NCBI GenBank assembly: GCA_039933315.1 | Contig: JBDTOI010000002.1 | Coordinates: 992-64,991, forward strand | Direction: 5' to 3' | DNA length: 64,000 nt | DNA from: Pyrinomonadaceae bacterium | GTDB lineage: Bacteria; Acidobacteriota; Blastocatellia; Pyrinomonadales; Pyrinomonadaceae | Shown: positions 24,446 through 61,309 of the stretch, piece after piece | Position numbering within the stretch: position 1 is the first letter of the stretch | Layout of the letters: the number at the start of each line of letters is the position of its first letter | Position numbers and translations under genes: made by a program | Notes under the pieces: model-generated | The model's input: only the letters and a program-made list of their open reading frames with translations | What the model was told of the DNA's origin: nothing | The model's database searches: none

Positions 24446-24608
24446 ATCTCATTAACACCCGGTTTCAACCGGGTGTCGGTGGTTACATTTTGAGTTTGAA
24501 CCGTTTCAACGGTTTCTAATTCGCCGGGCAGCGGGTAAACCGTTGAAACGGTTTCAGGTATCAGGATAGGTTGCGCATCACCCGGTTGAAACCGGGTGTT
24601 AATGAGAT
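24446..24608. repeat. family-A MITE/REP-like palindromic element (copy A1)
   Basis: Perfect 30-bp terminal inverted repeat ATCTCATTAACACCCGGTTTCAACCGGGTG (24446-24475 vs 24579-24608). Four internal hairpins at 24456-24475, 24499-24514, 24538-24553 and 24579-24598. Confidence 0.9.
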
Positions 24609-24646
24609 TAAGAGCTGTTAGCATTCATGGCGAGTACTAGATAAAT

Positions 24647-26803
24647 ATGAAACAGGTGATCCAGGATCTCCGGACCCACGACTTAAGAGTCGCAGACGTG
24701 CCCCCGCCGGTAGCGCAAAGAGGGCGCGTGCTGGTGCGTACAGCCGCGTCGCTGATCAGCGCGGGCACCGAGCGCATGACCGTAGAGATGGGAAATCGCA
24801 GCCTTCTGGGCAAAGCGCGAGAGCGCCCCGATCTGGTCAAGCAGGTGATTCATAAAGCCCAGACCGAAGGAGTACTCAATACTTTGAATGCGGTGCGGGC
24901 GAAACTCGATTCCGTCACGCCGCTTGGCTACAGCGCGTCAGGAATAGTTATCGGCGCCGGCGAGGATGTGACGGAGTTTCGCCCCGGCGATCGAGTAGCT
25001 TGCGCGGGTGCGGGCTACGCCTCGCATGCGGAAGTGCTTTCCGTTCCCAGAAACCTGTGCGTACGTTTGCCAGAGAATGTTGATTTTGCCCGCGGAGCTT
25101 TCGGCACGCTGGGGGCGATTGCTTTGCAGGGTTTACGGCTCGCAAGTCCCACCCTGGGAGAATCTTGCGTGGTCATCGGGTTAGGCCTGGTGGGACAGTT
25201 GACAGTGCAACTATTGAAAGCCAACGGCTGCCGCGTTTTTGGGATTGATCTCGACAAACAGAGAATCGAGCTGGCGCGACAGCTGGGGGCGGACGACGGA
25301 TGCGCGCCCGACAACGATGCTGAACGACGAGCGCTGGAGTGGTCGCGCGGGCGCGGCGCCGATGCCGTGCTGATAACCGCAGCCACTTCTTCGAATCAAC
25401 CGGTTGAGCTGGCAGGCGCAGTGTCTCGTCTCAAAGGACGGGTCGTCGCCGTTGGTTTGGTTGGTCTCGATATACCGCGCGACATCTACTATCACAAAGA
25501 ACTTACGTTGAACATCTCCATGTCGTACGGGCCCGGACGTTATGACGCGGAATACGAAGAGCGCGGTCACGACTATCCCTTTGCCTACGTGCGCTGGACG
25601 GAAGGGCGCAACCTCGAAGCGTTTCTTGATCTGGTGGCGGCCGGCAATATTAGGGTTGAGAGTTTGATCACCCACCGCTTTTCCATTGCCGACGCCGAGC
25701 GCGCCTACCAGTTGATTACCGGTGAAGTAAAAGAGCCTTACCTGGGCGTGTTGCTTGAATACGATACCGAACGTGCACTTGAGACACGACTGAGCCTGCC
25801 CGACGGCCAGAAGAACTCCGCAGCAGGGGAGCAGGGCGTCACCATTGGTCTGATTGGGGCGGGGAGTTATGCAAAGAAATTCCTGCTTCCGAATTTCAAA
25901 GCGGCGGGCGCGCGATTTCAAACCATCGCCACTGCCTCTGGTCTTTCGGCGCGCGAAGTCGGCGAGAAATACGGATTTCGTTTCTGTGTCTCAGGCGCTG
26001 CTGAAGTGCTGGACGATGAAGACGTGAATTTGATCGTCATCGCCACGCGGCACGACACTCATGCAGAGCTGGCCCGGCGCGCACTCGAACGGGGGCGACA
26101 TGTCTTCGTAGAGAAACCCCTCGCGCTAAACGATGAAGAGCTGGAGAGCGTGCTGGCTGCCGCCGCGCAATCAGATCGGCGCCTGATGGCGGGATTCAAT
26201 CGCCGGTTTTCACCATTGGCCCGCGCAGCTAAAGACTTTTTCCAGGACGCGGGCGCGCCCCTTTCAATTAACTACCGCGTCAATGCGGGCCGCATTCCCC
26301 ACGAGCATTGGATACAGGATCCGCGCGAAGGTGGCGGCCGCATCATAGGCGAAGTGTGTCACTTCATTGACCTGATGCAGTTCCTTACCGGAGCGGTTAC
26401 TACACGAGTCTATGCGGAAGCGATCGCCGGCCGCAACCACGAAATGGTTAACGAAGACTCAGTTTTTATCACGCTGCGTTTCGCTGACGGATCGAATGGC
26501 TCGATCGCTTACCTGGCCGAAGGCGACAAAACACTTCCCAAGGAGCGGATAGAAGTCTTCGGCGCGGGCAAGTCGTTCGTGATCGATGACTTTCGCAGCG
26601 CCACCTTACACAGCAGTGGGAAAGAGAAAACTGTAAAGCTGCGGGGTCAGGACAAGGGACAGGCCAATGAAGTGCGCGAGGTCTGCCGGGTTGTTCTGAA
26701 AGGTGGATCGGCGCCGATTGCTTTGGACGATCTAGCCGCGACTACCCGCGCTACGTTTCGAATTCTGGAATCCCTGCGTACTAGTTTGCCAGTCGAGGTA
26801 TGA
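24647..26803 (+). CDS. bi-domain oxidoreductase (MDR/zinc-ADH-like + Gfo/Idh/MocA)
   Basis: N-terminal MDR with 'VIGLGLVGQL'. C-terminal Rossmann 'IGLIGAGSYAKKFLLPNF' and 'VFVEKPLAL', typical of Gfo/Idh/MocA. Confidence 0.8.
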   Translation: MKQVIQDLRTHDLRVADVPPPVAQRGRVLVRTAASLISAGTERMTVEMGNRSLLGKARERPDLVKQVIHKAQTEGVLNTLNAVRAKLDSVTPLGYSASGIVIGAGEDVTEFRPGDRVACAGAGYASHAEVLSVPRNLCVRLPENVDFARGAFGTLGAIALQGLRLASPTLGESCVVIGLGLVGQLTVQLLKANGCRVFGIDLDKQRIELARQLGADDGCAPDNDAERRALEWSRGRGADAVLITAATSSNQPVELAGAVSRLKGRVVAVGLVGLDIPRDIYYHKELTLNISMSYGPGRYDAEYEERGHDYPFAYVRWTEGRNLEAFLDLVAAGNIRVESLITHRFSIADAERAYQLITGEVKEPYLGVLLEYDTERALETRLSLPDGQKNSAAGEQGVTIGLIGAGSYAKKFLLPNFKAAGARFQTIATASGLSAREVGEKYGFRFCVSGAAEVLDDEDVNLIVIATRHDTHAELARRALERGRHVFVEKPLALNDEELESVLAAAAQSDRRLMAGFNRRFSPLARAAKDFFQDAGAPLSINYRVNAGRIPHEHWIQDPREGGGRIIGEVCHFIDLMQFLTGAVTTRVYAEAIAGRNHEMVNEDSVFITLRFADGSNGSIAYLAEGDKTLPKERIEVFGAGKSFVIDDFRSATLHSSGKEKTVKLRGQDKGQANEVREVCRVVLKGGSAPIALDDLAATTRATFRILESLRTSLPVEV

Positions 26804-26854
26804 CCTGGTCGCAGCTCTGCGGTCCAGGCGCGGTTTTATTCTGACTGAAGCCGG

Positions 26855-27085
26855 GAACCGCAAAGCGGTTCTGCCCTCCAGCCCAGGGTTGCCGCTTCGG
26901 CTACCCTGGGTACACGTTTGAAATGCCTAATCAACCCCAACCGGGTTGTGTCAATTTCATAATGGGCATTCCATCCAACGAACGTCGACACAACCCCCTT
27001 GGGGTTGAAAACGTTTGCGTGCATCGTTTCCCAGGGTAGCCGAAGCGGCAACCCTGGGCTGGAGGGCACAACCCCGTTGGGGTTG
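26855..27085. repeat. family-B MITE/REP-like palindromic element (copy B1)
   Basis: Perfect 38-bp inverted repeat GCCCTCCAGCCCAGGGTTGCCGCTTCGGCTACCCTGGG (26873-26910 vs 27030-27067), plus flanking and internal hairpins. Confidence 0.9.
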
Positions 27086-27090
27086 GATCC

Positions 27091-29052
27091 TCAACTTGAA
27101 CCCCCACTCAGCTTGTCCATGAATTCCCGCTGCCACAACTCTAACGTCAGCAGTTGAAAAACTTGCAAAGGAAAGTCCTCACGTCCCGAAAGATTTGCGT
27201 CAATAATCTGCCGCACTGCAGCCGGGCGGAACAATCCACGTCTTCTGACAGTTTCCTCGGATAGTAGATCTTCCACCAGAGGCTTCAGCGGACCGCGCAG
27301 CCAGGCGCGTATCGGAGCGCCAAACCCCGCCTTCTTGCGCCAGACAACGTCTTTGGGCAAAAGCTTCTCCGCCGCGCGCTTCAGAATGTATTTACGTTTC
27401 AATCCCCGCAGTTTAAGGTTCGGTGGCATCCGCGCCGCAAGGTCCATTAATTCGTGGTTAAGAAAGGGCACGCGCACTTCAAGGTTCGCGGCCATCGAAG
27501 TCTTGTCCGTATAGGCAAGATTAAGACACGGCAGAAACGTTTTCAGGTCAACATATAGAAGCTGATTGAGCGGGTCGGCGTTTTTTACACGGGCAAAATA
27601 GCGGCGGTGCTCGCGATAAGCATCCATGCCGCTCGTGGCCTGCTGCGTCTCTTCAGTGAAGATCTGTTGCTTCATCTCCGGCGTGAAATAAGTGCCGAAA
27701 CCAAGGTAGCGGTCTTCAAAATCAAGGGCCGCACTTCGCGCAAATTTCTTGGCGTTGCGCAAAGGGCCGGTCAGTTTTCCCGGCCGCCCGCCCGGTAGAG
27801 TATCGGCGATTACATTCATCAAAGGCCGGCGCAAGAAGCCGGGAGCGGGATCGAGCGCGCCGGCAATCCGCATCGCCATATGCCGCGGGTAGCCGGCAAA
27901 CACTTCGTCACCACCCATTCCGGAAAGCATGACTTTTAATGTTTCACGCGCGGCTTGCGAGATTAAGAAACTTGAAAGCATGGCCGGATCGGCGAGGGGT
28001 TCATCCGCATGGTAGATGAGCTTTGGTAACAGCGTGGCCACATCCGCTTGCAACATGATCTCGTGATAATCAGTTTGCAGCAGGTCACTGACCCGACGGG
28101 CCCAGACCACGTCGTCAGGCACAATATCGTAGTGCAGGTCCTCGGCCGCCATGCCGACGGTGTAGGTCGAGACGCTCTTCCCATTACTATGACGCTTCAT
28201 CAACGCGACAATCGATGACGAGTCAACGCCGCCGGAAAGAAACGATCCCAGGGGAACATCCGCCACCATCTCAAGCTTTACCACGCGATCGAGAGTCTCG
28301 AGCACACGATCGCGCCACCAGCTTTCGCTCCTGCCCTCCGCGATCTCGTCAAACGAAATGTCCCACCATTCGATTAGGTTGATGCGACCGTCCTGCACCG
28401 TCAGGAAGTGGCCGGGCGGTAATTTCCAGATGTTTTCAAAGAGCGTGTGGGGATCCGGCGTCCAAAGGAAAGTCAGGTATTGATTGAGCGCCTCGAAGTT
28501 CAGGCTGGCTCGAACGAGACCGGTAGCGAGGATGGCCTTTACCTCAGAAGCGAAGGCAAACGAATCAGTGGCGCCGCTTGTGCCCTTGATCGACGAATAG
28601 TAAAGCGGTTTGATTCCGACGCGGTCGCGGGCGAGCGTGAGGGTCCTCTTCTCGTTGTCCCAAACAGCGAACGCGAACATTCCGTTGAGGCGCTGCAGGC
28701 AATTGGTGCCCCATTCGGCAAACGCGGTCAGCAGGACTTCCGTGTCCGTTTCAGTGTGAAACGGATAGCCCTTTGATCTGAGTTCCTCTCGCAGCTCCCG
28801 GTAGTTATAAATCTCGCCGCCGAAAGTGATGACATAGCGGCCGTCAGCGGAAAACATCGGCTGATGACCGGCGCTGCTGGTATCGATGATGGCCAGCCGG
28901 CGATGTCCCAGGGTCACCCGCGCCCCCTGGTCGTCTATTACTTCCGAAGTCCAAACCCCTTCGTCGTCGCGTCCGCGGTGCTCAATGCTCTGAAGCATCG
29001 CGCCCACCTGTGGTTCCGGATTTAAGCTGATGAGTCCCGCAATGCCGCACAT
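27091..29052 (-). CDS. asnB: asparagine synthase (glutamine-hydrolysing) family amidotransferase
   Basis: N-terminal nucleophile 'MCGIAGL'. PP-loop 'SFLSGGVDSSSI'. Its location in a glycan locus suggests a sugar or uronate amidotransferase role (inference). Confidence 0.85.
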   Translation of the reverse strand: MCGIAGLISLNPEPQVGAMLQSIEHRGRDDEGVWTSEVIDDQGARVTLGHRRLAIIDTSSAGHQPMFSADGRYVITFGGEIYNYRELREELRSKGYPFHTETDTEVLLTAFAEWGTNCLQRLNGMFAFAVWDNEKRTLTLARDRVGIKPLYYSSIKGTSGATDSFAFASEVKAILATGLVRASLNFEALNQYLTFLWTPDPHTLFENIWKLPPGHFLTVQDGRINLIEWWDISFDEIAEGRSESWWRDRVLETLDRVVKLEMVADVPLGSFLSGGVDSSSIVALMKRHSNGKSVSTYTVGMAAEDLHYDIVPDDVVWARRVSDLLQTDYHEIMLQADVATLLPKLIYHADEPLADPAMLSSFLISQAARETLKVMLSGMGGDEVFAGYPRHMAMRIAGALDPAPGFLRRPLMNVIADTLPGGRPGKLTGPLRNAKKFARSAALDFEDRYLGFGTYFTPEMKQQIFTEETQQATSGMDAYREHRRYFARVKNADPLNQLLYVDLKTFLPCLNLAYTDKTSMAANLEVRVPFLNHELMDLAARMPPNLKLRGLKRKYILKRAAEKLLPKDVVWRKKAGFGAPIRAWLRGPLKPLVEDLLSEETVRRRGLFRPAAVRQIIDANLSGREDFPLQVFQLLTLELWQREFMDKLSGGSS

Positions 29053-29079
29053 AAAAGTAATGTCTGAATAGAATCGGGC

Positions 29080-29272
29080 TCGACGCGCAGCGTCGACATG
29101 AATTTAGCCCGGCCTTTCAAGGCCGGGAAAGCTCAAGCCATGAATTTGCGTCGCTTAGCGACGCCTGAAAGTGGCGCTCAGTTCAATCGTCGCTACGCGA
29201 CGCTAGTAGCGAATGCTCTTTGAACCCGGCCTTGAAAGGCCGGGCTAAATTCATACCGACGCTACGCGTCGA
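29080..29272. repeat. family-C MITE/REP-like palindromic element
   Basis: 48-bp terminal inverted repeat with 3 mismatches (29080-29127 vs 29225-29272). It contains hairpins CCCGGCCT-TTCA-AGGCCGGG and CCCGGCCT-TGAA-AGGCCGGG. Confidence 0.9.
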
Positions 29273-29291
29273 AACACCCTTGTACGAGAAG

Positions 29292-30200
29292 TTAAGCCTT
29301 TTTCTTCGCATAAATCCAAAGGTGCCACCCCCAGCGCGCCGCCAGCCGCGATTCAAATGAACGCGGGAGAACACTTCCTAACAGCGGCAACCAGCGCTTA
29401 TTAAAAAAGTGGGCCTGCAACTTCACGTCAGCAAAGTCCGCGAAAAGCGCGCGTGCCTCCGCTCGCGAATAGGCTCTCGCCAGTGGATTGCCCACCCCGT
29501 CAGTGTTCTGGCTGAGAAACTCATCCGCTTTCAAATAAGACTGCTTCTCTGTCTGCAGAAGTTTGGCATGCTCGCGCAGCGACTCCAGCGGTTCCCCCGT
29601 CAGGCGGTGGACCAGCTTGATTCCTGATTCCCAGTTTAGTAACTGCGCTCCAGCTCTTCGCAGAATAGAGATGTTAATGCGGTAATTATAAGAATCGCGA
29701 TGATAGAGCATGACTATCGCGCGGCCGCCTGGACGGAGCACTCGATGGACTTCGTTGATGGCCTTTTGCGTGTCCGGGGTGTGATGCAGCACGCCGTGAG
29801 AGTAAACCAGATCGAAACTTTCATCCTTGAAATCGAGGTTCTCAGCGTCGGCCGTGGCGAATGTTCCATTAAGATTGAACAGCTCAAACCGTTTGCGGGC
29901 CAACTCAACAGCCGCGTCGGTAAGATCGACTCCGGTGTAATCCGCGCCTGCTTCGGCAAACTGCGCCCCGTCAGTTCCCAGTCCACAGCCGATTTCCAGG
30001 ACCTTCAGCCCCCGCGCACCGGCAAAACCGGCCGCCATGGGAATGTGCCACTCTGTTGTGTAGCGATGCGCCTCGACCAATTCGTAGAAACGGCGCGTCC
30101 CCGGTTCAGCGTCGGCAAACTTGATCCCGCAGGGATTCGCTTGCCAGAAAGCCCGGACCCGTTCCTTGAGAGTAGCGTTTTGTTGCGACATCAACAGCAA
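29292..30200 (-). CDS. class I SAM-dependent methyltransferase
   Basis: Motif I 'VLEIGCGLGTDG', then 'LRPGGRAIV'. Confidence 0.8.
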   Translation of the reverse strand: MLLMSQQNATLKERVRAFWQANPCGIKFADAEPGTRRFYELVEAHRYTTEWHIPMAAGFAGARGLKVLEIGCGLGTDGAQFAEAGADYTGVDLTDAAVELARKRFELFNLNGTFATADAENLDFKDESFDLVYSHGVLHHTPDTQKAINEVHRVLRPGGRAIVMLYHRDSYNYRINISILRRAGAQLLNWESGIKLVHRLTGEPLESLREHAKLLQTEKQSYLKADEFLSQNTDGVGNPLARAYSRAEARALFADFADVKLQAHFFNKRWLPLLGSVLPRSFESRLAARWGWHLWIYAKKKA

Positions 30201-30215
30201 GACCTGGGGGTGCGA

Positions 30216-31328
30216 CTACGCGGCTGGTTCCGCCTTTGCGGCGATGAGTTCGCGATAAATAGATAGATATTCCGGGGCTACAATTTCTGCCGTGAACTGT
30301 TGCGCCAATTTGCGATTCTGCAATGCCATGGCTGATCGAAGGTCGGGATCCCCCACCAATTGTTGTATCTGCCGGGCAAGCATTTCGGGGTTCTTCGGCT
30401 CGACCCAGAAACAATTTTCGGGTTCACGCAAGTAATCCGCAGCCGCGCGTATCCTGGTGGTGACAATCGGCAAACCATTGGCAGCGGCATTGAAGATAAC
30501 CATGGGAAAGCCTTCGATATGATAGGTCGGAAAGAGCAACAGGTCGCTATTCGCGTAAAACTGTCGTGTGTCTTCTTCCGGGATGTAGCCAAAAAAGCGA
30601 ACCCACGGTTGCAGCTGGTGCTTTGCCACCAGGGCTTCCGCTTCAGCGCGCTGCGGCCCATCGCCCACACACAATAATAGAAAGTTCTGGCCGGCGTCGC
30701 GGCAAAGGCCGCACGCCAGAATCACATCCAGTAATCCCTTCGCCGGAATGAAGCGACCTATGAACAGCAACAACGGCCGGTCAACGGGCAAATTCCACTG
30801 CCGCAGGAATTCCGGGTTGCGCTGGGCTGTGTTTACCTCAACAACATTCTTTACGACAAAGACCTTGTTTTCCGGAACACCTGCGCGCAGGAAGTTTTCT
30901 CGTTCCTCGGATGACAGCACGCCGATGCCGTCAGCGCGAGATAACACGCGGCGAATCAAGACTGCCAGCGCGGGATTACTCCTCTCCAACAGGCTGCCAT
31001 CAGAACCATGAAACTTGAGGAACACCTTTGTCCGTTTGACACGAAGGCGGGGAACAATCGCGGCATCGCGCAACAGTGCCCTGGTGTCGAAGGAAGTGTT
31101 TATGTGAACCAGATCGAAATCGCTTTGGCGCAGGCGATTGCGAAAAACGCGCGCAGTCTTTAGCACTCGCTCGGCCCTGGAACCGAACCCCACGTTTACT
31201 TTCGCGTAAACATAGACTTCTTCTTCGACCTCATGGCCCAATCGTCGCAGCTCATCAATGAACGGGGGCTCACAGGCAGCGGGACCGCCCTGAGCTCCCT
31301 GTTCCGGCATGCCAACTAATATCCGCAC
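30216..31328 (-). CDS. glycosyltransferase family 4 (GT-B)
   Basis: GTG start 'MRILVG'. C-terminal 'SDLLLFPTYHIEGFPMVIFNAAANGLPIV' (EX7E-like region). Confidence 0.8.
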   Translation of the reverse strand: MRILVGMPEQGAQGGPAACEPPFIDELRRLGHEVEEEVYVYAKVNVGFGSRAERVLKTARVFRNRLRQSDFDLVHINTSFDTRALLRDAAIVPRLRVKRTKVFLKFHGSDGSLLERSNPALAVLIRRVLSRADGIGVLSSEERENFLRAGVPENKVFVVKNVVEVNTAQRNPEFLRQWNLPVDRPLLLFIGRFIPAKGLLDVILACGLCRDAGQNFLLLCVGDGPQRAEAEALVAKHQLQPWVRFFGYIPEEDTRQFYANSDLLLFPTYHIEGFPMVIFNAAANGLPIVTTRIRAAADYLREPENCFWVEPKNPEMLARQIQQLVGDPDLRSAMALQNRKLAQQFTAEIVAPEYLSIYRELIAAKAEPAA

Positions 31329-31342
31329 GAGATCGTCTCTCC

Positions 31343-31412
31343 AGAGATCAGAGGTCAGAGATCGGAGGTCAGAGGTCGGAGGTCAGAGATCAGAAGTCAG
31401 AGATCAGAAAGT
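31343..31412. repeat. degenerate heptanucleotide tandem array (AGAGRTC)x10
   Basis: Ten consecutive 7-nt units: AGAGATC AGAGGTC AGAGATC GGAGGTC AGAGGTC GGAGGTC AGAGATC AGAAGTC AGAGATC AGAAAGT. 31439-31453 is the exact reverse complement of 31371-31385. Confidence 0.9.
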
Positions 31413-31451
31413 GACGCGCTTTGGAGTTGTCTTTTCACTGACCTCCGACCT

Positions 31452-32165
31452 CTATTCGGCGAGCACCAGCAAAGAATATCCGCCCAGCGCGCGCGCCACG
31501 AAATCCTGGTTGATTTTGGCAAGCACTCTTCGCGGCAGGCTGGCCAGCTTCGCCTTAACACTGCGCGGATGATCAAGGGCGCCATCAGTGTAAACCGTAT
31601 CCAACACCGTATAGCCCGTATCGCGCAGCGTGGCGAGGGCTGTCTCTTTCATAAAGTAATGAAGGTGCCCCGCCTGGTCCCTCTCCTTCAGAATGGGCCG
31701 TCCGCGCAATACCCACTGAGCTGACATGTCCAAAGGAATATGAAAAATCTTATGACGTGCTTTGTCTCGCATGGCTGCCAGGAAACTCATGTAGTTTTGC
31801 ACATGCTCAAACACGTCAATGCAAAGCAATAGATCGAAGTGCGGGGCAACGGCCGTAAGCAGGTCTTCGCAGTAGAAGTGAAGCCGCTCATTGGCCCTTG
31901 GCTGGCAGAGCGAAAATGCCTGTGGCGAAATCTCGTATCCATGGAACTCGGTATCGGCCGGCAGCTGGGATTGAAGCTGGCGCAGAATTTCGCCGGCCCC
32001 GCAGCCGACTTCACAGATCGTTTTTGGCTCAAGCCCATGCCTTTCAATCAGTTTGAGAATCTGCTGTGCCTTCCACGACGAATCTTCGACGTGGTAAGTG
32101 GGGTTCTTGTCCACATATTCGCCGGTTTGATAGATGCTCTGGTTGTTAGTCGCCACTTGATTCAC
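31452..32165 (-). CDS. class I SAM-dependent methyltransferase
   Basis: Motif I 'ICEVGCGAGEIL'. 4-nt overlap with the upstream methyltransferase gene. Confidence 0.78.
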   Translation of the reverse strand: MNQVATNNQSIYQTGEYVDKNPTYHVEDSSWKAQQILKLIERHGLEPKTICEVGCGAGEILRQLQSQLPADTEFHGYEISPQAFSLCQPRANERLHFYCEDLLTAVAPHFDLLLCIDVFEHVQNYMSFLAAMRDKARHKIFHIPLDMSAQWVLRGRPILKERDQAGHLHYFMKETALATLRDTGYTVLDTVYTDGALDHPRSVKAKLASLPRRVLAKINQDFVARALGGYSLLVLAE

Positions 32166-32992
32166 TTTGTTCCCACAAGCTTTATACCCAGGATCAATTT
32201 CAATGGTAACCCGCGCGCGATTGTTCTTCCCAGTCGCCGCGGCACCTTCGCCAGGATCGATTCCAATGCGCCGACGAACTGAACCGGGATCGTTAAATGA
32301 AGGCCCCTGGCGCCGGCCAGCACTTCTACTTTGCGAAATCCGGCTGTGCGGAACAACTGCGAGAGTTCCCGGGCCGAATACTCCCTGAGGTGAAAACCGG
32401 TAGGAACGTCGTCGAAATAGCTCGAAACGTCATGCGGTCCGGAAAGCCGGTTTGGAGTAATACAGATGTAGACGCCCCCCGGCGCCAGGGCGCGATAAAC
32501 GTTTTGCAGTTGGTCCGCGGCGTCGTCCGGATGCAGGTGCTCCATGAGTTGATCGCTGTAGGCGATATTGACACTGTTATCGGGAACGGGAACACTGGAT
32601 CCATCAGAGATAATGAGTTCCAAATTCTGGGGTAGTTCAATCGCCCTAGTGATCTCTCCGGACACATCAACAACAGAGACTTTTCGCACATGCTTAGCCA
32701 CCTCGATTGCCAGCGAACAAGCGCCAGGGCCTAATTCAAGGTAGGTCGAAGTTGGCGTGAGATAACCTTGTAATAGAGCGAGCCGTTCGCTGACCTCCTG
32801 CGCTCGTTCTTCCGGTTGTATTGCCAGCTGCGGATGATCGGGAACTCTGCGAAACAGTTCGTCATAGACTTCAGTGTAGAGGTTTCTCCGTTCTTCTTTG
32901 GTTGCTGTGCGCAAGCGCGCGGCGAGTTCCTTTTCGATGAGGTAATGCTGGGTGATTGCGTCGGAGGATCGGGCTTTATTTGTCTTGGGCAT
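32162..32992 (-). CDS. class I SAM-dependent methyltransferase
   Basis: Motif I 'YLELGPGACSLAIEV', then 'LAPGGVYICITP'. ATG at 32992 (MPKTNK) is preferred; the track start at 33004 is a TTG inside repeat D1. Confidence 0.78.
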   Translation of the reverse strand: MPKTNKARSSDAITQHYLIEKELAARLRTATKEERRNLYTEVYDELFRRVPDHPQLAIQPEERAQEVSERLALLQGYLTPTSTYLELGPGACSLAIEVAKHVRKVSVVDVSGEITRAIELPQNLELIISDGSSVPVPDNSVNIAYSDQLMEHLHPDDAADQLQNVYRALAPGGVYICITPNRLSGPHDVSSYFDDVPTGFHLREYSARELSQLFRTAGFRKVEVLAGARGLHLTIPVQFVGALESILAKVPRRLGRTIARGLPLKLILGIKLVGTK

Positions 32993-33000
32993 TGCTTTGG

Positions 33001-33245
33001 ACAAAAAGTCAGACTCAAACGAGTCCGCGAAGCGGACGGACGAAAATAGCCCAGCAGTTCACTGCTGGGGCTCAGGTTAAAGGGCGATTGCAAGTCCGTG
33101 AAACGGACGGCTGAAATCTCATAATTAAAGCCATAGTGACCAAGTCAGCCGTCCGTTTCACGGACTGCATCTGCGTAAGCTCGTCTTCTTCCCAGCGATG
33201 AATCGCTGGGCTATTGTCTTTCGTCCGCTATCGCGGACTTTTTGT
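33001..33245. repeat. family-D MITE/REP-like palindromic element (copy D1)
   Basis: Arms ACAAAAAGTC..CGCGAAGCGGAC..AATAGCCCAGCAGTTCACTGCTGGG and the inverse copy at 33191-33245. Inner hairpins GTCCGTGAAACGGAC / GTCCGTTTCACGGAC. Confidence 0.88.
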
Positions 33246-33300
33246 GCAAAGCCCTTGGGCACAGTACGTTTTTGAGGCCTCCCTGACGGCCGGGCTTCTG

Positions 33301-34497
33301 TTAGCGTCGGCGCAGGCCGAGAATGCTGAGAAAGAAGCTGGAGAACAGGGTCTGACAGCCAACCGTCAGCGAGGTTACGGCGGGTATGACAATACGCATC
33401 GTCCGCGCCGGGTCGAGGTTGCCAAATGATAGCTGGTCCCAGAACCAGTATGCATAAACAGAGCCAGCCAGGCCGGCGAGTATCAAAATAATTGCCACCA
33501 CCACACCGACCTCCAGGGTCACGTAGCGATATGCCCGCTCGAGCCGCTGGTCCCTGGGCAGCAGTCCTTCACTGATCGCGAACACCTTTGTGAATACGGC
33601 AAAGAGGATCGACTGGAACCCTATGACGATCGCGACGGCTGCGTAAAGCAGTGTGTGCACATCAAAGGTCACGCCGCCCACGACGAACGGCCCTGGCACC
33701 AACCAGAGCATCGCGACCAATCCGATCATCATGAGCAGGGTCCCCGGGTAGAGAAAGAGCCAGCGCGGGCTGTAAAGCAGAAGGAAGCGCAAATGACGCC
33801 AACCGTCTCGCCAACTTCGCAGATGTGGCGGACGGCTGCGCCCGTCCGGCGAAAGCGTGGTTGGCACTTCCGAGATTTTCAATCCCTGCAAAGTCGCTTT
33901 CACCACCATTTCACTCGCGAACTCCATCCCGGTCGTTTGGAGATCGAGTTTCATCACAGCGGCTTTGCTGAACCCGCGCAGGCCGCAATGAAAGTCCCCA
34001 CAGGGACTATGGAAGAACAGCCGTCCAATTGTCGTCAGGACTGGATTCCCGAGATAGCGATGCAGTGGCGGCATGGCGCCTCGTCTTATTCCACCCAGGA
34101 AACGGTTCCCCATCACAAGATCATGACCGTCACGTAATTTCGCAATGAATGGCCCGAGCGCACTGAAGTCGTAGCTGTCATCAGCGTCGCCCATGATCAC
34201 GTATTTGCCACTAGCCGCGGTGATACCGGCCATCAAAGCGCTGCCGTAACCTTTGGTTGGCACGTTGACCACACGGGCGCCAAGCTGCCTCGCAATGTCC
34301 TGCGAGCCATCAGTGCTGCCATTGTCGGCAATAATGATCTCGCCCGCTACATGGTTTTCCGCTAGTGAGTCTTTCGCCTTCTGAATGCAGGCGGCCAGCG
34401 TCTCTGCTTCATTCAGGCAGGGCATGACTATGGAAAGCTCCACAGTGGTGTGGTTATCTCCCGGAATGGCCTGGGCTGCGCTTGTGTCCATGGTCAA
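33301..34497 (-). CDS. GT2 polyprenyl-phosphate glycosyltransferase-like (ArnC/GtrB/DPM1-type) with 4 C-terminal TM helices
   Basis: 'LSIVMPCLNEAETL', 'IIADNGSTDGS' and 'GDADDSYD' (DxD), followed by hydrophobic helices. Confidence 0.8.
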   Translation of the reverse strand: MTMDTSAAQAIPGDNHTTVELSIVMPCLNEAETLAACIQKAKDSLAENHVAGEIIIADNGSTDGSQDIARQLGARVVNVPTKGYGSALMAGITAASGKYVIMGDADDSYDFSALGPFIAKLRDGHDLVMGNRFLGGIRRGAMPPLHRYLGNPVLTTIGRLFFHSPCGDFHCGLRGFSKAAVMKLDLQTTGMEFASEMVVKATLQGLKISEVPTTLSPDGRSRPPHLRSWRDGWRHLRFLLLYSPRWLFLYPGTLLMMIGLVAMLWLVPGPFVVGGVTFDVHTLLYAAVAIVIGFQSILFAVFTKVFAISEGLLPRDQRLERAYRYVTLEVGVVVAIILILAGLAGSVYAYWFWDQLSFGNLDPARTMRIVIPAVTSLTVGCQTLFSSFFLSILGLRRR

Positions 34498-34556
34498 AAT
34501 GCACGTGGGCTTTGCACAAGAATTCTTATTTCATGTTCCTTCGTGTAGCTTAATCC

Positions 34557-34607
34557 GATTTCGTGGATCGTATGGCTCCGAGTCCTAAGCACACGATCCA
34601 CGAAATC
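34557..34607. repeat. long intergenic hairpin (15-bp perfect stem)
   Basis: GATTTCGTGGATCGT (34557-34571) / ACGATCCACGAAATC (34593-34607). Weaker extension TTCGTGT/ACACGAA at 34539-34616. Confidence 0.85.
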
Positions 34608-34649
34608 ACACGAAGCAACACGAACCGAAATACTTTTAACCTGGGTCGG

Positions 34650-35657
34650 CTAACGCTCTTGTAAAACCACCTCGCGAAAAATGTCAGCCAGTTTCGGCGC
34701 GCTGGCGCTTACGGAGTAATGCTGTTCGACTACCTGCCTGCCGGCGCTTCCCATTCGCGGGCCCAGTTCGCGCTCGCTGAACAACCGTTTGAGGGCAGCA
34801 TACCAATCATCGCTGGCAGCGGCCGCGAATCCCACCTTACCGTGGTCCAGGATCGCTTCATTGACGCCAACTGGACTGACCACCACCGGAAGGCCGGCTG
34901 ACATGTAGGAAAGCATCTTAAAGCCACACTTCCCGCGCGCCTGCTCTGAATCTTCCAGCGGCATTAGCCCAACATCCATTTGCTGGACCAGGCCCACCTC
35001 ATTGGCCGGGGACCATTGCTCAAATCGCCATTTGTCGTCCGGCAGGTTCTGGAACGAAGGCGCGCGATCGCAGATTACCAACAAGCGTGTCCCGGAGTGC
35101 TCCGCTAAGAACTGGGCCAAAGGCTTTTCGATCTCAGCGAGAAACTTAAGATTAGACCACGATCCGATCCAACCTATGGTCCAGTCCTGATGTACACGTT
35201 GCGCCGGCGGCCTCCATACCTCAGTGTCCACCGAGGTGGGTACCAGCCAAACCCTTGCGCCGGCTCGTTCGTAGTGGTCCGCCAGAAAACGATTACCGGC
35301 GATTACGCCGTCACAATGCCGGGCAATCTCAATTGAGAAGTCGGATTTGTAAGGCAACCAGATGGCATCATCAACATCGAAGACCCGTCTCTTTCCGGCC
35401 GCGGCCTCAAGCGTAAACTTTCCCGAAACCAACTCCCGTCCCAGCCAGGTCACATCGCTAAACCTGGAGGCCAACAGACCCGGAATCCGCAGCGCCTTTG
35501 CCAGTAAAGGCAGGGGCTCGATCTTGTACCGATTGATCAAAGGCCTGTGTTCACCAACTTCTACCCCCAGGCGACTCAGCGGTTCAATGAACTGCCGGAT
35601 ACGAAACCTGCTGGAAGGGTCGACTTTGCTCGCCGTCAGGGCAGTCACCTTGATCAT
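34650..35657 (-). CDS. glycosyltransferase, GT-B fold (GT4/GT1-like)
   Basis: C-terminal 'DVGLMPLEDSEQARGKCGFKMLSYMSAGLPVVVSPVG', a GT-B nucleotide-sugar binding region. Confidence 0.7.
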   Translation of the reverse strand: MIKVTALTASKVDPSSRFRIRQFIEPLSRLGVEVGEHRPLINRYKIEPLPLLAKALRIPGLLASRFSDVTWLGRELVSGKFTLEAAAGKRRVFDVDDAIWLPYKSDFSIEIARHCDGVIAGNRFLADHYERAGARVWLVPTSVDTEVWRPPAQRVHQDWTIGWIGSWSNLKFLAEIEKPLAQFLAEHSGTRLLVICDRAPSFQNLPDDKWRFEQWSPANEVGLVQQMDVGLMPLEDSEQARGKCGFKMLSYMSAGLPVVVSPVGVNEAILDHGKVGFAAAASDDWYAALKRLFSERELGPRMGSAGRQVVEQHYSVSASAPKLADIFREVVLQER

Positions 35658-35725
35658 GGTAGCTGTTGCGCGATCACTGTAGGGGCGTCACTCCGTGGGC
35701 GCCCCTCCGTTTCTTCGTGACACCC

Positions 35726-37000
35726 CTACAATCCTTTCTGGCGCCGGGGAATCACCCAACCTTCGAGTAAGAGAATCTGGATTATCAGGTTAACAAACAG
35801 ATAGATGCTGGTCACAACTGCCAGGCCCATCAGGCCATACTGCATGAACGCTATGACCTTCGCCGGCACATAGAGCGTAAAGGTAATGATCGACATGCGG
35901 GTCGGAGTTGAGGTATCTCCCATGGCATAAAATGTCGTGGATGTAATCTGGCCCATAGCGCCACCAATGAAAAAACCGACCAGCGCGACCATAATCAGCC
36001 ATAGCAAATGAACGTTGTCTGCGGTGACTCCGCCGTGGCCAATTAGTAAATTGAGTATTCGCTCGCCGGCCAGCAGAAGGATCACGTAGCCCGCCGCAGC
36101 CAACCCGCCAATCATCAACAAGCGCCTTTGATAGATACGTTTGAAAGTGGACCACCTCCCGGCGGCCGCTTCGATCGCCAGCTGCGGCACCATCGGAGCG
36201 GCGATGGCCTTTTCGGCGATCACGTTGGCGACCCCGTAAATTTGCTGGCCAATGTAAAGCAATGACAGTCCGCCCGCCGGCGCCATCGATGCCAGATAGC
36301 GATCAACCAGCGGGTCGGTTCGGTAGTATGCCGTTCCTATTAGCAACGGCCGGATGCGTCGCCTTGCTTCTCGCATTGCCTCCGAGTCCCATCGCGGCCA
36401 CTGCCAGCGCCCCAGGCCGGGCAGCAACCAAAGCACTTGCATTAGAGTTCGAAGAACAATGATGAAAGCGGCGGCCGCGATTCCATAAATCGCGAGCAGT
36501 TTGATAATCAGTCCCAGTGCCACGAGATTGGACAAAAGCGTAGATAGCTCAACCCATATGAATTGCTTGCGCGCATGGTATACGGACCAGAGCACCGAAA
36601 CTGAGGCGGTTAAGATCATACTAACGAGTTGAATCTTGGTCAGACTAACGGTCAACAATTTTGCCGGAACGGAGAATCCCGGAACCAGCCACGGCACCCA
36701 GTAGCCGGCAGTGACAAACAGGGCCAGGGCCAGGATCGTAAAGAGCGCGCTCACGCCGAGAAAGAAGCCCCACGCGTTTTGGCGAAAAGTGATTTCATTC
36801 TCGGTGGCCAGCAAGGGCACCAGTACGTGCGTCAGCGAGGAGCTAACTACGCTCAGGATTAAGGTCGGCAAAGCCATGGCCGCGAACAGTGCGTCTGTTT
36901 CAATTCCTACGCCGAGTTGTGTTATGACGTACCACTGGAACAGCAGTGAGAGAAGAATATTGGCGCCGGCAAGAACTGCAAGAGTCAGGGTCTGCTTCAT
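35726..37000 (-). CDS. MurJ/MviN-like MOP-superfamily flippase
   Basis: About 12 TM helices. The N-terminal 'GVGIETDALFAAMALPTLILSVVSSSLTHVLVPLL' parallels the MurJ N-terminal motif. At 424 aa it is shorter than housekeeping MurJ. Confidence 0.65.
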   Translation of the reverse strand: MKQTLTLAVLAGANILLSLLFQWYVITQLGVGIETDALFAAMALPTLILSVVSSSLTHVLVPLLATENEITFRQNAWGFFLGVSALFTILALALFVTAGYWVPWLVPGFSVPAKLLTVSLTKIQLVSMILTASVSVLWSVYHARKQFIWVELSTLLSNLVALGLIIKLLAIYGIAAAAFIIVLRTLMQVLWLLPGLGRWQWPRWDSEAMREARRRIRPLLIGTAYYRTDPLVDRYLASMAPAGGLSLLYIGQQIYGVANVIAEKAIAAPMVPQLAIEAAAGRWSTFKRIYQRRLLMIGGLAAAGYVILLLAGERILNLLIGHGGVTADNVHLLWLIMVALVGFFIGGAMGQITSTTFYAMGDTSTPTRMSIITFTLYVPAKVIAFMQYGLMGLAVVTSIYLFVNLIIQILLLEGWVIPRRQKGL

Positions 37001-37011
37001 TAAGTGTGTAA

Positions 37012-37029
37012 CGCAAACTTTAGTTTGCG
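37012..37029. repeat. family-G palindrome CGCAAACT-TT-AGTTTGCG
   Basis: Perfect 8+8 inverted repeat, 11 nt upstream of the flippase ATG (37000). Confidence 0.85.
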
Positions 37030-37093
37030 ACTAATCAAAGTCCACGTGAACGAAGGAAGAGCTTATATTTGATCACCAGCATTATTTCAAACA

Positions 37094-37285
37094 GTGTCAC
37101 AGACTTCAGTCTGTGATTCCCGATCGCAGACACAAGTTTTGACCTTCATGCTTTTCCAGCGAGCAGATGGCCACTTGCAATCACAGACTGAAGTCTGTGC
37201 CACATTGAAGACACAAGTTTTGACCTTCATGCTTTCCACGTTGAGCAGATGGCCACTTGCAATCACAGACTGAAGTCTGTGCCAC
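37094..37285. repeat. family-E hairpin element (copy E1) with ~81-bp-period tandem duplication
   Basis: GTGTCACAGACTTCAGTCTGTGAT (37094-37117) is inverted relative to ATCACAGACTGAAGTCTGTGCCAC (37180-37203 and 37262-37285). Direct repeat units at 37129-37203 and 37210-37285 are near-identical. Confidence 0.9.
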
Positions 37286-37289
37286 TAAT

Positions 37290-44060: not shown

Positions 44061-44069
44061 CCTCCTCCT

Positions 44070-45710: not shown

Positions 45711-45807
45711 CTAAGCGGCGCTTCCAAAAACGATACATCTACTAAATCACACGAACCAGGCACGAGAGTTGGACTGCGGGTACTCCATCAAGCTCTACGT
45801 TCAAACT

Positions 45808-47087: not shown

Positions 47088-47158
47088 GACGTTCTCACAG
47101 CATCTGACCTCAACCCATTCGCTTTGTACCTCGATGAAGGCGATCCGTTCTTAGCCAG

Positions 47159-51455: not shown

Positions 51456-51468
51456 TAGAATCTCGAAC

Positions 51469-51487
51469 GCAAACTGTTAGTTTGCGG
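51469..51487. repeat. family-G palindrome CGCAAACT-GTT-AGTTTGCG
   Basis: Perfect 8+8 inverted repeat, 13 nt upstream of the ATG at 51455 and abutting repeat D2. Confidence 0.85.
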
Positions 51488-51490
51488 CTT

Positions 51491-51711
51491 TAGTCCGCGA
51501 AGCGGCCGAGTGAAAATAGCCCAGCACTTGAGTGCTGGGGTGTTTCGCAGAGTGGTGGCCACAGTCCGTGAAACGGACGGCTGCATTGCGATTCTTCGGT
51601 TCAACGACCAATGTTGTTCAGTCGTCCGTTTCACGGACTATCTACCAGACGGCTTGGCGAATCCCAGCACTGAAGTGCTGGGCTATTTTCATACGTCCAC
51701 TACGCGGACTA
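51491..51711. repeat. family-D MITE/REP-like element (copy D2)
   Basis: Arms at 51491-51539 and 51663-51711 with the same module order as D1. The stem of the CCCAGC.. hairpin differs from D1 by compensatory changes. Confidence 0.9.
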
Positions 51712-53556: not shown

Positions 53557-53655
53557 GTGGCACAGACTTCAGTCTGTGAAAAACTACGCCCTGGTGGCCA
53601 CTTCAATCTCTGATGAATCTACCGCGCTATATTCACAGACTGAAGTCTGTGCCAC
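53557..53655. repeat. family-E hairpin element (copy E2)
   Basis: GTGGCACAGACTTCAGTCTGTGAA (53557-53580) is inverted relative to TTCACAGACTGAAGTCTGTGCCAC (53632-53655). The right arm overlaps the last 7 codons plus stop of the MFS gene. Confidence 0.9.
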
Positions 53656-56486: not shown

Positions 56487-56549
56487 CCGTTGTACTCCTT
56501 GTGCTCTAAAATGTTAGCCAGCAGGTTCGCGCAAATGACGCTGAGAACT

Positions 56550-56595
56550 GAAAACCAAAAGGCGCAAAGGTGTGGAGTGCTTCTTCTTTGCGCCT
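56550..56595 (-). terminator. Rho-independent terminator formed by a family-F repeat (F3, extends to 56615)
   Basis: 10-bp stem AGGCGCAAAG (56560-56569) / CTTTGCGCCT (56586-56595), followed on the minus strand by TTTTGGTTTT. Downstream of the DAACS gene. Confidence 0.6.
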
Positions 56596-56664
56596 GTGCG
56601 TGAAACCTCAACTTTGTTCAGATCCAAAATGATTAATGATATATGGAAATGGACCCTATAAGTT

Positions 56665-59899: not shown

Positions 59900-59971
59900 G
59901 CCGTGACACTTTACAGCACAAACGGCCCGAACGCCGAGATATGAAGTTTAGATTTTGCCGCCGGGCTGCGA

Positions 59972-60241
59972 CTATCTGCGAGCGCTGTGCACCAGGGCGC
60001 GGGGGGCCTCATTAAGGTGCAACTCGGCGGCGCATTCGTCACAGAGCCACACCAGAATCTGCGGCGCATCCATCCAGTAAAAAGGAGTTATCCGGCCCGC
60101 GATCTTTAAGGCGTGATCAGCTGACAAACGCTGAATTGCCTGTACGAAGAACACACCATTATAGAAATCGCCTTCGGCCCCCGCTTCGCGGTGAAGACAC
60201 TCGCGCTCACGAAAAGTTTGCTTCATCATCGAGGTTACCAC
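59972..60241 (-). CDS. hypothetical protein
   Basis: 89-aa ORF (GTG start; ATG two to three codons in). 'WLCDECAAELH' is the only Cys-containing patch. No family recognised. Confidence 0.4.
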   Translation of the reverse strand: MVTSMMKQTFRERECLHREAGAEGDFYNGVFFVQAIQRLSADHALKIAGRITPFYWMDAPQILVWLCDECAAELHLNEAPRALVHSARR

Positions 60242-60428
60242 CCTCCCTCGCGCCGCACCGCGCGAGAATAATTTGAAAAGTCGGAGAGACTTTTGTCGGG
60301 CGTTTTCTGATGTGAGAGCTGAGGGGCTGGGCGAATCCTAAGCCTAAAGGGGGGTAACTCTGGTGCGCCTTGATTTGCATGATGCCACGCTAGCCCGGAC
60401 GTGGTCAACGTGCTTGAAAAGACTATCT

Positions 60429-61091
60429 TTAAAAAGGACTCGGGCCTTCGAATATCTCCCGGATGCGTCCAGCGTCGCGCGGTCGCTCTACAACTGGATC
60501 GGAATCATTAGGGCGTCGAACTTTTGCAGCCTGGTGGCGCTGAGCTGGTCGGTCGGACCGCTTCATTACAACTTTTTGTTGGCTAGCGGCAGCTTCATCG
60601 TCCGCAGACCTCTGCTTGCTTCGCTCCCGGCCATTCAACGGCGTGATTTCTTTGGCCGGAATGGGTGCGATGTCGCTCAGGTCACTCTCATCCTCTGTTG
60701 AAGTTGGCTTGGTTGTTGACGCTGAAGCCACGGTCTCATCCGACTGCCGCGCGATAGGCTTCGAAGTATTCTCCGAATCTACCACCAGGGTGGGCGGCGC
60801 GGGGAACTCTGCCACCGCAGTCGCTGGCGCTGCTCGCCGGTTCTGCAAAAAGACGACGGATACAGCTACGCCCGCCCCGAGTAGCGCGGCCGCCAGGATA
60901 ATGCCTGCCTTAAACAAGTAACCACGCGTCGTTTCCGGTGCCGCGGCAATGTCGATCGGCACCACAGGCCTTGCCGTTAGCAACGTGGCTTCGTCATCGA
61001 AGTGCGGCAACGGTGGTGTCGGAGCCTCTGGTTGAGGTTCCATCGGAATAGTAATTCTGGTTAGGTTCTTCATTGCAACAAAGCTGGCCAT
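60429..61091 (-). CDS. hypothetical single-pass membrane protein
   Basis: Pro-rich N-terminus, one TM 'AGIILAAALLGAGVAVSVVFL', and a low-complexity S/T/A/R-rich C-terminal region. Confidence 0.5.
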   Translation of the reverse strand: MASFVAMKNLTRITIPMEPQPEAPTPPLPHFDDEATLLTARPVVPIDIAAAPETTRGYLFKAGIILAAALLGAGVAVSVVFLQNRRAAPATAVAEFPAPPTLVVDSENTSKPIARQSDETVASASTTKPTSTEDESDLSDIAPIPAKEITPLNGRERSKQRSADDEAAASQQKVVMKRSDRPAQRHQAAKVRRPNDSDPVVERPRDAGRIREIFEGPSPF

Positions 61092-61217
61092 GCTCGCCTG
61101 GTTGCAAGATCAGGGCCAGAGTGAACTAAGTCGGCTTTAGGGTGTTGGGATTCAAAGGCGGGTTTTAGAGCGGTACGAGTTCGTTATGCGACCTACCCAT
61201 ATCGTGCACTAACCGAT

Positions 61218-61309
61218 GTGGCACAGACTTCAGTCTGTGATGGAAGATGCGGAATTTCTGGGATAGGGGTGAGTTTTAAAGTCGGATCACAGACTGAAGT
61301 CTGTGCCAC
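61218..61309. repeat. family-E hairpin element (copy E3)
   Basis: GTGGCACAGACTTCAGTCTGTGAT (61218-61241) is inverted relative to ATCACAGACTGAAGTCTGTGCCAC (61286-61309). It ends 4 nt from the dxs stop codon. Confidence 0.9.

Follow-up and report, generated by a model that had tools for sequence, protein, structure and literature searches.

Tagged hairpins with a TTNA loop in intergenic repeats of a Pyrinomonadaceae genome: probable REP-type sequences of a RAYT-family transposase

Repetitive extragenic palindromes (REPs) and REPINs are short palindromic DNA sequences spread around a genome by RAYT, a tyrosine transposase for which a 5′ tag and a TTNA loop are the recognition signals. The repeats, the enzymes and loop-specific recognition are already known. 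Here we analyse a 64,000-nt stretch of a Pyrinomonadaceae genome (contig JBDTOI010000002.1, the whole stretch being called hereafter the window), in which intergenic elements carry hairpins of dissimilar stems under a common TGAA/TTCA loop. We put at about 70% the probability that these hairpins are REP/REPIN-type repeats, the tag-strand hairpins serving as single-stranded DNA (ssDNA) substrates for at least one RAYT-family Y1 transposase whose gene lies in another part of the genome.

The GTAG superfamily of REPs is defined by a GT[AG]G tag joined to a short palindrome, with inverted dimers 20–100 nt apart (PMC3733652). For a group-3 enzyme, the TnpA(REP) of Marinomonas, SELEX on the TTTA loop selected T12, T13 and A15 but no particular third base, that is TTNA (Corneloup et al. 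2021, PMC8266576). Of the two strands, TnpA(REP) binds REP but not the complementary iREP, and the tag helps to choose the cleavage site; in group 3, where the REPs are perfect palindromes of short length, the enzymes depend on specific bases in the loop (PMC8266576). In the insertion sequences (IS) of the IS200/IS605 group (IS608, ISDra2), the HUH Y1 transposase contacts T residues in the loops of subterminal ssDNA hairpins, and a 5′ tetranucleotide guides cleavage (as summarised in PMC8266576). For Acidobacteriota, a 2013 survey describes RAYT-like genes bearing repeated terminal inverted repeats (TIRs), those of aba_1552 forming a repeated family, and reports no GTAG REPs (Di Nocera et al. 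2013, PMC3733652). The last relevant system is Acido-Lenti-1 (RF01687), to which its authors assigned no function, group II introns being occasionally found close by (Weinberg et al. 2010, PMC2864571).

The window was searched mechanically for perfect hairpins whose stem has 6 bp or more and whose loop has 4 nt. Among 41 such hairpins, 18 had a TGAA or TTCA loop; in 100 dinucleotide-preserving shuffles of the window, the mean was 0.16 and no shuffle had more than 2. A sequence-only reading had noticed that four repeat families share this cap and had proposed a genome-wide census against shuffled controls; run on the 64 kb, such a census gave a number far above the shuffled expectation. As the 18 hairpins are copies of repeats, and hence not independent, the fair count is that of distinct stems, which amounts to five (CACCCGGT, AACCGT, CCCGGCCT, CCCAGCnn and CACAGAC). 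A random 4-nt loop is TGAA or TTCA with p = 2/256, which for four further independent stems gives about 4e-9. All these hairpins sit in intergenic composite elements made of inverted repeats. There are eight elements, and all eight are inverted pairs with tags facing outward. On the + strand every element has TTCA in its left arm and TGAA in its right arm, variant loops being described below. Because the arms are inverted copies, there is a single oriented loop and not two.

The hairpins were found at the places first given for them, save that two of family E shift by 1 nt (53634–53651 and 61288–61305), and the compensatory pairs reported in the family D stems (AG/CT, GA/TC, AC/GT) were confirmed by reading the sequence. 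The number of unrelated families had to be reduced from four to three: A, C/D and E are mutually dissimilar, but C and D, whose sequences also align directly to each other, are homologous. The regularity across families, a loop common to dissimilar stems, held, but it also includes a 5′ tag that had been missed. Read 5′ to 3′ on the tag strand, a unit consists of a short tag, a stem, TT(C/T)A and the complementary stem. The tag is GTGG in E (in six of the seven 24-nt units of the 64 kb), ATAG or TTAG in D/C, and ATCTCATTAA in A. The GT[AG]G tag is thus matched by E, in part by C/D and not by A. The tag-strand loops TTCA, TTTA (left arm of A2, and the hairpin at 37012) and TTGA (left arm of D2) all fit TTNA, and the sole rule-breaker is the TGCA of the right arm of A2. 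Hence the three loops listed earlier as exceptions (TTTA, TGCA, TTGA) do differ, but all retain T1 and A4, and two of them obey TTNA on the tag strand. The units are short (24 nt in E, 31 nt for the outer unit of A, within the 20–40 nt of REPs), palindromic, extragenic and multicopy, and they form inverted dimers or clusters able to fold into a larger hairpin. In C and D, a small hairpin follows the main one 20–24 nt further inward. The eight elements, and one single hairpin, are listed here; whole elements have no strand.

Element A1, 24446–24608: inverted dimer between divergently oriented genes, 30-nt arms 100% complementary.
A1 outer REP-like unit, left, 24446–24475, tag strand +: ATCTCATTAA-CACCCGGT-TTCA-ACCGGGTG.
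A1 outer REP-like unit, right, 24579–24608, tag strand −.
A1 inner hairpins, 24499–24514 and 24537–24554: AACCGT-TTCA/TGAA-ACGGTT.
Element A2, 43789–43965: second copy of family A.
A2 outer hairpins, 43807–43826 (loop TTTA) and 43928–43947 (loop TGCA, a perfect 20-bp palindrome).
A2 inner hairpins, 43852–43867 and 43887–43902.
Element C, 29080–29272: arms 94% complementary, each consisting, from outside to inside, of an outer hairpin, a linker ending in the TTAG tag, and the main hairpin.
C outer hairpin of the left arm: TCGACGC-GCA-GCGTCGA.
C main hairpin, 29108–29127 (tag strand +) and 29225–29244 (tag strand −): CCCGGCCT-TTCA-AGGCCGGG.
C inner hairpins, 29148–29164 and 29188–29202.
Element D1, 33022–33239: Acido-Lenti-1 arms.
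D1 main hairpin, left, 33050–33069, strand +: ATAG-CCCAGCAG-TTCA-CTGCTGGG.
D1 main hairpin, right, 33191–33210, strand −: CCCAGCGA-TGAA-TCGCTGGG-CTAT.
D1 outer hairpins, 33023–33037 and 33223–33238.
D1 inner hairpins, 33094–33108 and 33151–33165: GTCCGT-GAA/TTC-ACGGAC.
Element D2, 51491–51711: Acido-Lenti-1 arms.
D2 main hairpins, stem CCCAGCAC/GTGCTGGG, 51520–51539 (loop TTGA, strand +) and 51663–51682 (loop TGAA, strand −).
Element E1, 37094–37285: three 24-nt REP units between divergently oriented genes, the second tag-strand-minus unit having arisen from an 82-nt tandem duplication.
E1 unit 1, 37094–37117, tag strand +: GTGT-CACAGAC-TTCA-GTCTGTG.
E1 units 2 and 3, 37179–37203 and 37261–37285, tag strand −: CACAGAC-TGAA-GTCTGTG-CCAC.
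Element E2, 53557–53655: inverted dimer.
E2 units, 53557–53580 (+), GTGG-CACAGAC-TTCA-GTCTGTG, and 53632–53655 (−), CACAGAC-TGAA-GTCTGTG-CCAC.
Element E3, 61218–61307: inverted dimer of REP units, 61218–61241 (+) and 61284–61307 (−).
Single hairpin of a further family, 37008–37029, strand +: GTAA-CGCAAAC-TTTA-GTTTGCG.

A small hairpin family, AACGCAAACT-N-AGTTTGCG, lies near gene ends at 16726–16746, 20917–20937, 37008–37029 and 51466–51486. Its loops have the form T..A (TTTA, TAATA, TGTTA), and this may be a fifth family that follows the loop rule described above.

The distribution of the E unit was followed by scanning for its stem, with the loop left free (CACAGACNNNNGTCTGTG), in a collection holding one genome per species. 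At least 116 loci were found. Although about 2,000 chance matches are expected at that collection size, those listed were overwhelmingly metagenome-assembled genomes (MAGs) of Acidobacteriota; at least about 100 Acidobacteriota contigs carry E units. The matches listed came from Pyrinomonadaceae, Blastocatellia, Bryobacterales, Terriglobia and Acidoferrales, with, outside the phylum, a few Verrucomicrobiia, Cytophagales and Ignavibacteria MAGs and a handful from unrelated taxa, these last with odd loops and no tag. The unit reads CACAGAC-T[GA]AA-GTCTGTG-C[CT]AC on the TGAA strand and 5′-GT[AG]G-CACAGAC-TT[CT]A-GTCTGTG on the other. In 128 units of the matches listed that were tagged on one side, the tag-strand loop was TTCA in 78 and TTTA in 36 (114/128), and the reverse reading occurred in 3. 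As the E stem is a perfect palindrome, the tie between tag and loop polarity adds evidence of its own. Over the listed E loci and the window together, TGAA/TAAA-looped hairpins had the tail CCAC in 70 cases and CTAC in 61. Variant stems with the same loop and a CTAC/CCAC tail (CACAGGC, CACAAAC, CACCGAC, GACAGGC, GCCCGCC, CCCGCCTC, GTCGCGGC, CTACGGAC and others) were also present in E loci, and pairs 30–110 nt apart were common among the matches listed.

Relatives of the other families appeared at the listed E loci as well: units like those of family A, but on other stems and with TTAATGAGA or AGAATGAGA after them, occur in L105 and L014, and the Pyrinomonadaceae MAG locus L006 holds a copy of element C that is 71% identical. 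A second Pyrinomonadaceae MAG locus, L102, is syntenic with the window from 58.4 to 63.3 kb at 69–76% identity. At the site orthologous to E3 (5740–6070 of L102, 61092–61316 of the window), it contains a partly decayed E-type dimer, with a mutated left stem, CACAAGC/GCCTGTG, and a right loop TAAC. This comparison suggests long-term retention with decay and not a recent insertion, so that the units would be able to persist for long.

Genes for RAYT-type Y1 transposases (PF01797) were then considered, on Acidobacteriota-like contigs of soil metagenomes. From an alignment of acidobacterial RAYT-like proteins (Additional file 5, PMC3733652), 80 metagenome loci encoding aba_1552 relatives were selected by protein alone. 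They contained 137 perfect 4-nt-loop hairpins versus 21.6 in shuffles, and 68 with a loop of the TGAA or TAAA class versus 0.17. Within 200 nt upstream of the RAYT open reading frame (ORF), TTCA was found 11 times, TTTA 8 times and TGAA once; downstream of it, TAAA was found 9 times and TGAA 8 times, with 3 hairpins turned the other way. The tags face outward and have the form NNAG (TCAG, TAAG, GAAG, GTAG, ATAG, TTAG). Stems vary among loci and between the two sides of one gene (GGCACGAC, GGCATGGC, GGCGCGAG, GGCTTGGC, GCCCGGAC, CACCCGGC), and single RAYT genes with unlike stems on their flanks (L123, L125, L128) indicate that stem sequence is tolerated. Imperfect units had, on the tag strand, 14 G.T versus 4 A.C pairs, and one subfamily a conserved A.G mismatch; folding of the tag strand would be expected to leave non-Watson-Crick pairs with such a strand bias.

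A common layout of the RAYT flanks (L142, L149, L164, L202) is a tag, an 8-bp outer hairpin, 17–22 nt, and a smaller inner hairpin with a TTYA loop. The arm of family A has the same layout, with gaps of 22 and 24 nt between outer and inner hairpins, and 22 nt in the place of the gene. The stem of L142, CACCCGGC, resembles the family A stem CACCCGGT. In E. coli, rayT is flanked by GTAG-GACGGATAAGGCG-TTCA/TTTA-CGCCGCATCCGGC units, whose GTAG strand shows both of the loops seen here. With E. coli RayT as the query, a homologue search gave enterobacterial proteins only, among the best 120 listed. A profile of the acidobacterial RAYT-like proteins matched mostly the aba_3477/Terriglobia type, among the matches listed. 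In the one context of a Terriglobia-type RAYT that was examined, L120, the flanking hairpin is CCCACGTCTC-GYTTCT-GAGACGTGGG, so TTNA loops are not used by every acidobacterial RAYT.

Two further features of these RAYT loci can be mentioned. At L131–L139, in peat and soil metagenomes, a REP subfamily CAAG-GGCACGGC-TT[CT]A-GCCGGGCC invariably has A.G as its fifth pair counted from the loop, and in all 23 cases this mismatch is on the tag strand, which recalls the bulge required by the E. coli RAYT. In L149 (3380–3414), L202 (10448–10465) and L120 (3027–3052), the transposase ORF extends at its 3′ end into the inner hairpin of the downstream side; in L149 this hairpin codes for the last residues of the protein, PAAAEAAE, so that the repeat supplies coding sequence.

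The genome is present in soil metagenomes, runs X1 and X2 matching 0.93 and 0.77 of sampled words, and copy number could be estimated from contig depth. Contigs over the window had a depth of 5–9x on genes and 13–285x on the bins that bear elements. The depth of units was 3–40x that of the flanking unique sequence, and their flanks were many and unlike. Many contigs, with unlike flanks, ended exactly at the unit boundaries 33022, 29273 and 37286, the last (E1) with 18 to 21 such contigs. In A1, the 31-nt outer unit (24577–24608) stood at 158–197x, versus 6–8x for unique sequence, and the interior was single-copy. As the 31-nt unit alone is repeated, what is mobile or maintained is the REP and not the whole element. 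Inspection of the metagenome contigs over the window for presence or absence of the elements gave no clean empty site, only assembly breaks and copies with other spacers.

Families C and D have a counterpart among annotated RNAs. The four D arms scored 39.3–43.5 bits against RF01687 (42.5 bits for both arms of D1, 39.3 and 43.5 bits for those of D2), above the gathering score of 37, and the two C arms 34.3–35.1 bits (E about 2e-4), just under it; families A and E gave no match to this model. In the RF01687 seed (supplementary alignment of PMC2864571), the first stem varies widely (CGUGUGGC, CCUAGCUC, CCCACCAC, CCUAGGGC, CAGUGGGC, CCCAGCGA) beside a conserved loop and a GGCUA tail. Seed members with a UGAA loop come from soil, a whale-fall sample, Rhodopirellula and Geobacter, and the CCCAGCGA stem is present among them (PMC2864571). 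In many Lentisphaera copies of the seed, CCUAGC..GCCAGG leaves A opposite C in the strand that was modelled, where the complementary strand would have a G.T wobble (PMC2864571, supplementary file 183); on this complementary strand TCAG or TTAG stands 5′ of the stem. Such pairs suggest that the strand of Acido-Lenti-1 that folds is not the modelled one, and the modelled orientation of RF01687 may be wrong. The tag and loop grammar that the C/D arms have in common with the REPs flanking RAYT genes points to a DNA repeat. A match of E3 to mir-11 (28 bits, threshold 45) was discarded as a chance match to a hairpin.

How the repeats would be read can be pictured as follows. In single-stranded DNA, the tag strand would fold into an unpaired 5′ tag, a perfect stem of 7–8 bp and of almost any sequence, and a TTNA loop. 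A HUH Y1 transposase of the RAYT/TnpA(REP) family would bind the shape of the hairpin, the loop bases T1, T2 and A4, and the tag, which probably guides the choice of the cleavage site too; by cutting and rejoining DNA, it would spread and maintain the units. An enzyme reading shape, loop and tag, and not the stem, would let stems drift by compensatory change and split into families under a fixed loop. Indirect support for strand-specific reading by the predicted RAYT comes from the polarity of the E units (114 vs 3) and from the bias of G.T over A.C. The elements are most likely inverted dimers of the REPIN kind, or of the gene-less REPtron/TIRtron kind. Identification as REPs is strongest for E and good for A, and for C/D it rests on analogy. 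We infer that a RAYT is present in this genome, that all four families (A, C, D and E) are acted upon, and that recognition takes place on ssDNA. Among the alternatives offered by the sequence-only reading, a RAYT acting on ssDNA was the best fit, although the families are not all unrelated and the cognate gene is not in the window.

Several points weigh against this interpretation. Searched by regular expressions and phmmer, neither the 64-kb window nor the E-bearing loci (850 kb) yielded a Y1 or RAYT gene, and no RAYT with flanking hairpins of the E, D or C type was found; in particular, the two-hairpin Acido-Lenti-1 arm stood beside none of the RAYT genes of the 80 loci. The evidence linked to RAYT stems from metagenome contigs of other organisms. 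Hairpins were gathered by requiring perfect stems, so that stem covariation is partly built into the sampling. The tag of family A is unlike GTAG. Finally, the E. coli enzyme needs no particular loop sequence in vitro, the loop being merely structural (PMC8266576), and a shared loop therefore need not always mean contact with a protein.

Could the elements act chiefly as RNA, with UGAA- or UUCA-capped stem-loops stabilising mRNA 3′ ends, terminating transcription or binding a protein? The match of the D arms to an RNA family that its authors inferred from covariation speaks for it, yet the A.C mismatches of the Lentisphaera seed copies suggest a folding strand other than the modelled one. Most elements lie between co-directional or convergent genes, where transcription would cover them, but A1 and E1 lie between divergent gene starts, a location in promoter regions that agrees less well with a role purely at RNA 3′ ends than with insertion into intergenic DNA of any kind. 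REPs of other bacteria are reported to affect mRNA stability and termination (PMC3733652). In the window, however, loop polarity follows the DNA tag and not the flanking genes; since each dimer has both orientations, any transcript would carry one UUCA and one UGAA hairpin. The hairpins are not followed by the T-run that intrinsic terminators (a GC-rich stem, then a run of T) would have. Folding whole elements as RNA just reproduced the long palindrome, which is uninformative on function. We consider a chiefly RNA role unlikely; it could exist alongside the DNA role, as a secondary, exapted use.

Ordinary miniature inverted-repeat transposable elements (MITEs) are a less probable identity still. 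A DDE-type transposase would then bind the terminal inverted repeats as double-stranded DNA, and hairpins and loops would be incidental. The elements have the size (90–220 nt), the intergenic location, the terminal inverted repeats (24–50 nt) and the multiple copies of MITEs, but the ends of A1, A2 and E1–E3 show no target-site duplication, and the repeated unit is a single tag and hairpin of 24–31 nt, the spacer and inner parts of A1 being at single-copy depth. This combination argues against MITEs, for which terminal inverted repeats with target-site duplications and copies of the whole element would be expected. Moreover, dimers of one family carry different spacers, the window contains no transposase gene of any kind, and a polar loop common to unrelated stems would be left unexplained. 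The least probable of the alternatives is that nothing reads the loop specifically, its recurrence being due to common descent or to a thermodynamic or mutational preference for palindromes centred on T-GA-A. C and D are demonstrably homologous, and the T and A at the loop ends can pair, leaving an unpaired centre of 2 nt (GA/TC), which lowers the information content of a loop match. In contrast, the stems and flanks of A, C/D and E are dissimilar, yet the loop is retained, as is its orientation with respect to the tag (114 vs 3 in the E units). Families B, F and H and the GNA-type triloops of the same window use loops other than TGAA/TTCA, which shows that there is no genome-wide loop bias, and RAYT genes are flanked by this very loop in a fixed orientation.

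A large surface-polysaccharide cluster occupies 22427–38423 and 40117–48496, and nearly every intergenic gap in it holds a repeat element. Its genes encode PMT_2-type glycosyltransferases, GT1/GT2/GT4 enzymes, several SAM methyltransferases, a MurJ-like flippase, an asparagine synthase, a UDP-GlcNAc 2-epimerase, a UDP-glucose/GDP-mannose dehydrogenase and a GDSL lipase. An ORF at 39027–40019, with an N-terminal DUF4062 domain (E 5e-31), stands alone inside the cluster. Other repeats of the window are outside the families discussed so far. Family B (26856–27084 and 41745–41993) is a palindromic element of about 230–250 nt, with CCCAGGGTT...AACCCTGGG stems, loops CTTC and GCTTTG, small hairpins with AAA, GTT or TTC loops and, at 41833–41859, an 11-bp hairpin with the loop TGAAG; the bin with its first copy had the highest depth of the stretch compared, 285x versus about 7x (soil run X1). 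Family F (GAGGTTTCACGCGAAGGCGCAAAGAAA and its inverse; 19713–19815, 43997–44043 and 56534–56614) is outside the TTNA grammar; its bin stood at about 141x in X1, and many contigs stopped at 19812–19815. An 85-nt palindromic element at 34540–34624, with a CACGATCCACGAAATC core and no Rfam match, exceeds all other repeats of the window in abundance in these metagenomes (contig depth about 1000x at 34582 in X1). At 31342–31411, between two glycosyltransferase/methyltransferase cluster genes, a 14-nt unit, CAGAGATCAGAGGT, is repeated in tandem about 5 times (bin at about 48x).

In the literature searched, three things appear undescribed: acidobacterial REPs that bear a GT[AG]G tag, a code of TT(C/T)A loops at RAYT genes of the aba_1552 type, and the reading of Acido-Lenti-1 as a REP-like DNA repeat. 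Identification as REPs would give a concrete identity to the repeats that fill the polysaccharide cluster, and would extend GTAG-type REPs to soil Acidobacteriota, where they were previously uncatalogued. The suggestion that Acido-Lenti-1 is REP-like DNA, and not the curated "sRNA", is relevant to non-coding RNA annotation in these phyla. With several families of one genome using the same loop under differing tags and stems, the window also offers a natural experiment on the REP features that a RAYT reads. A broader proposal, which we hold tentatively and at slightly less than even odds, is that a TTNA loop and a 5′ tag form the recognition code of a RAYT-type transposase clade extending from Proteobacteria to Acidobacteriota, with several free-stem families per genome, tags setting the cleavage sites, and Acido-Lenti-1 as the arm of a DNA repeat. 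If it is true, the near-identical 22-nt E unit, present across several Acidobacteriota classes and in a few MAGs of Verrucomicrobiia, Cytophagales and Ignavibacteria, would reflect either a very old vertical co-inheritance of RAYT and REP or horizontal transfer of the pair.

Among the systems described, IS200/IS605 differ from the window elements in that their hairpins are imperfect palindromes at the bounds of an autonomous IS that carries tnpA, sometimes together with tnpB; they do not occur as hundreds of dispersed units lacking a gene. Acido-Lenti-1 consists of two hairpins joined by a linker containing GGCUA, the first stems strongly covarying, as in the D/C arms. It differs in being filed by Rfam as sRNA, whereas the arms of the window always occur as inverted pairs within palindromic repeats of about 200 nt, and in the loops of its Lentisphaera and Koribacter seeds, which are mostly UNAC and not UGAA.

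With GTAG REPs, REPINs and bacterial interspersed mosaic elements (BIMEs) of E. coli, Pseudomonas, Stenotrophomonas and Marinomonas (group 3), the elements have in common extragenic palindromes of 24–31 nt, an unpaired 5′ tag, which resembles GT[AG]G in E and partly in C/D, a high copy number and, in the present elements, inverted dimers 30–110 nt apart. Their short perfect stems are those of group-3 REPs, their TTCA/TTTA loop is that of the z-type REPs beside rayT in E. coli, and the TTNA rule is the requirement of the Marinomonas enzyme. The differences lie in the host, here an acidobacterium (Blastocatellia/Pyrinomonadaceae-like), and in families A and C/D, which have non-GTAG tags and extra hairpins in each arm. 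Family A resembles the TIRtrons (TIRYT, Koribacter aba_1552), whose metagenome relatives have inverted two-hairpin arms of about 50 nt with TT(C/T)A loops; family A consists of the same arms without the gene. PMC3733652 treats these TIRs as unrelated to REPs, whereas the flanks of the aba_1552 relatives collected here share their tag, stem and TTNA grammar with GTAG-type REPs.

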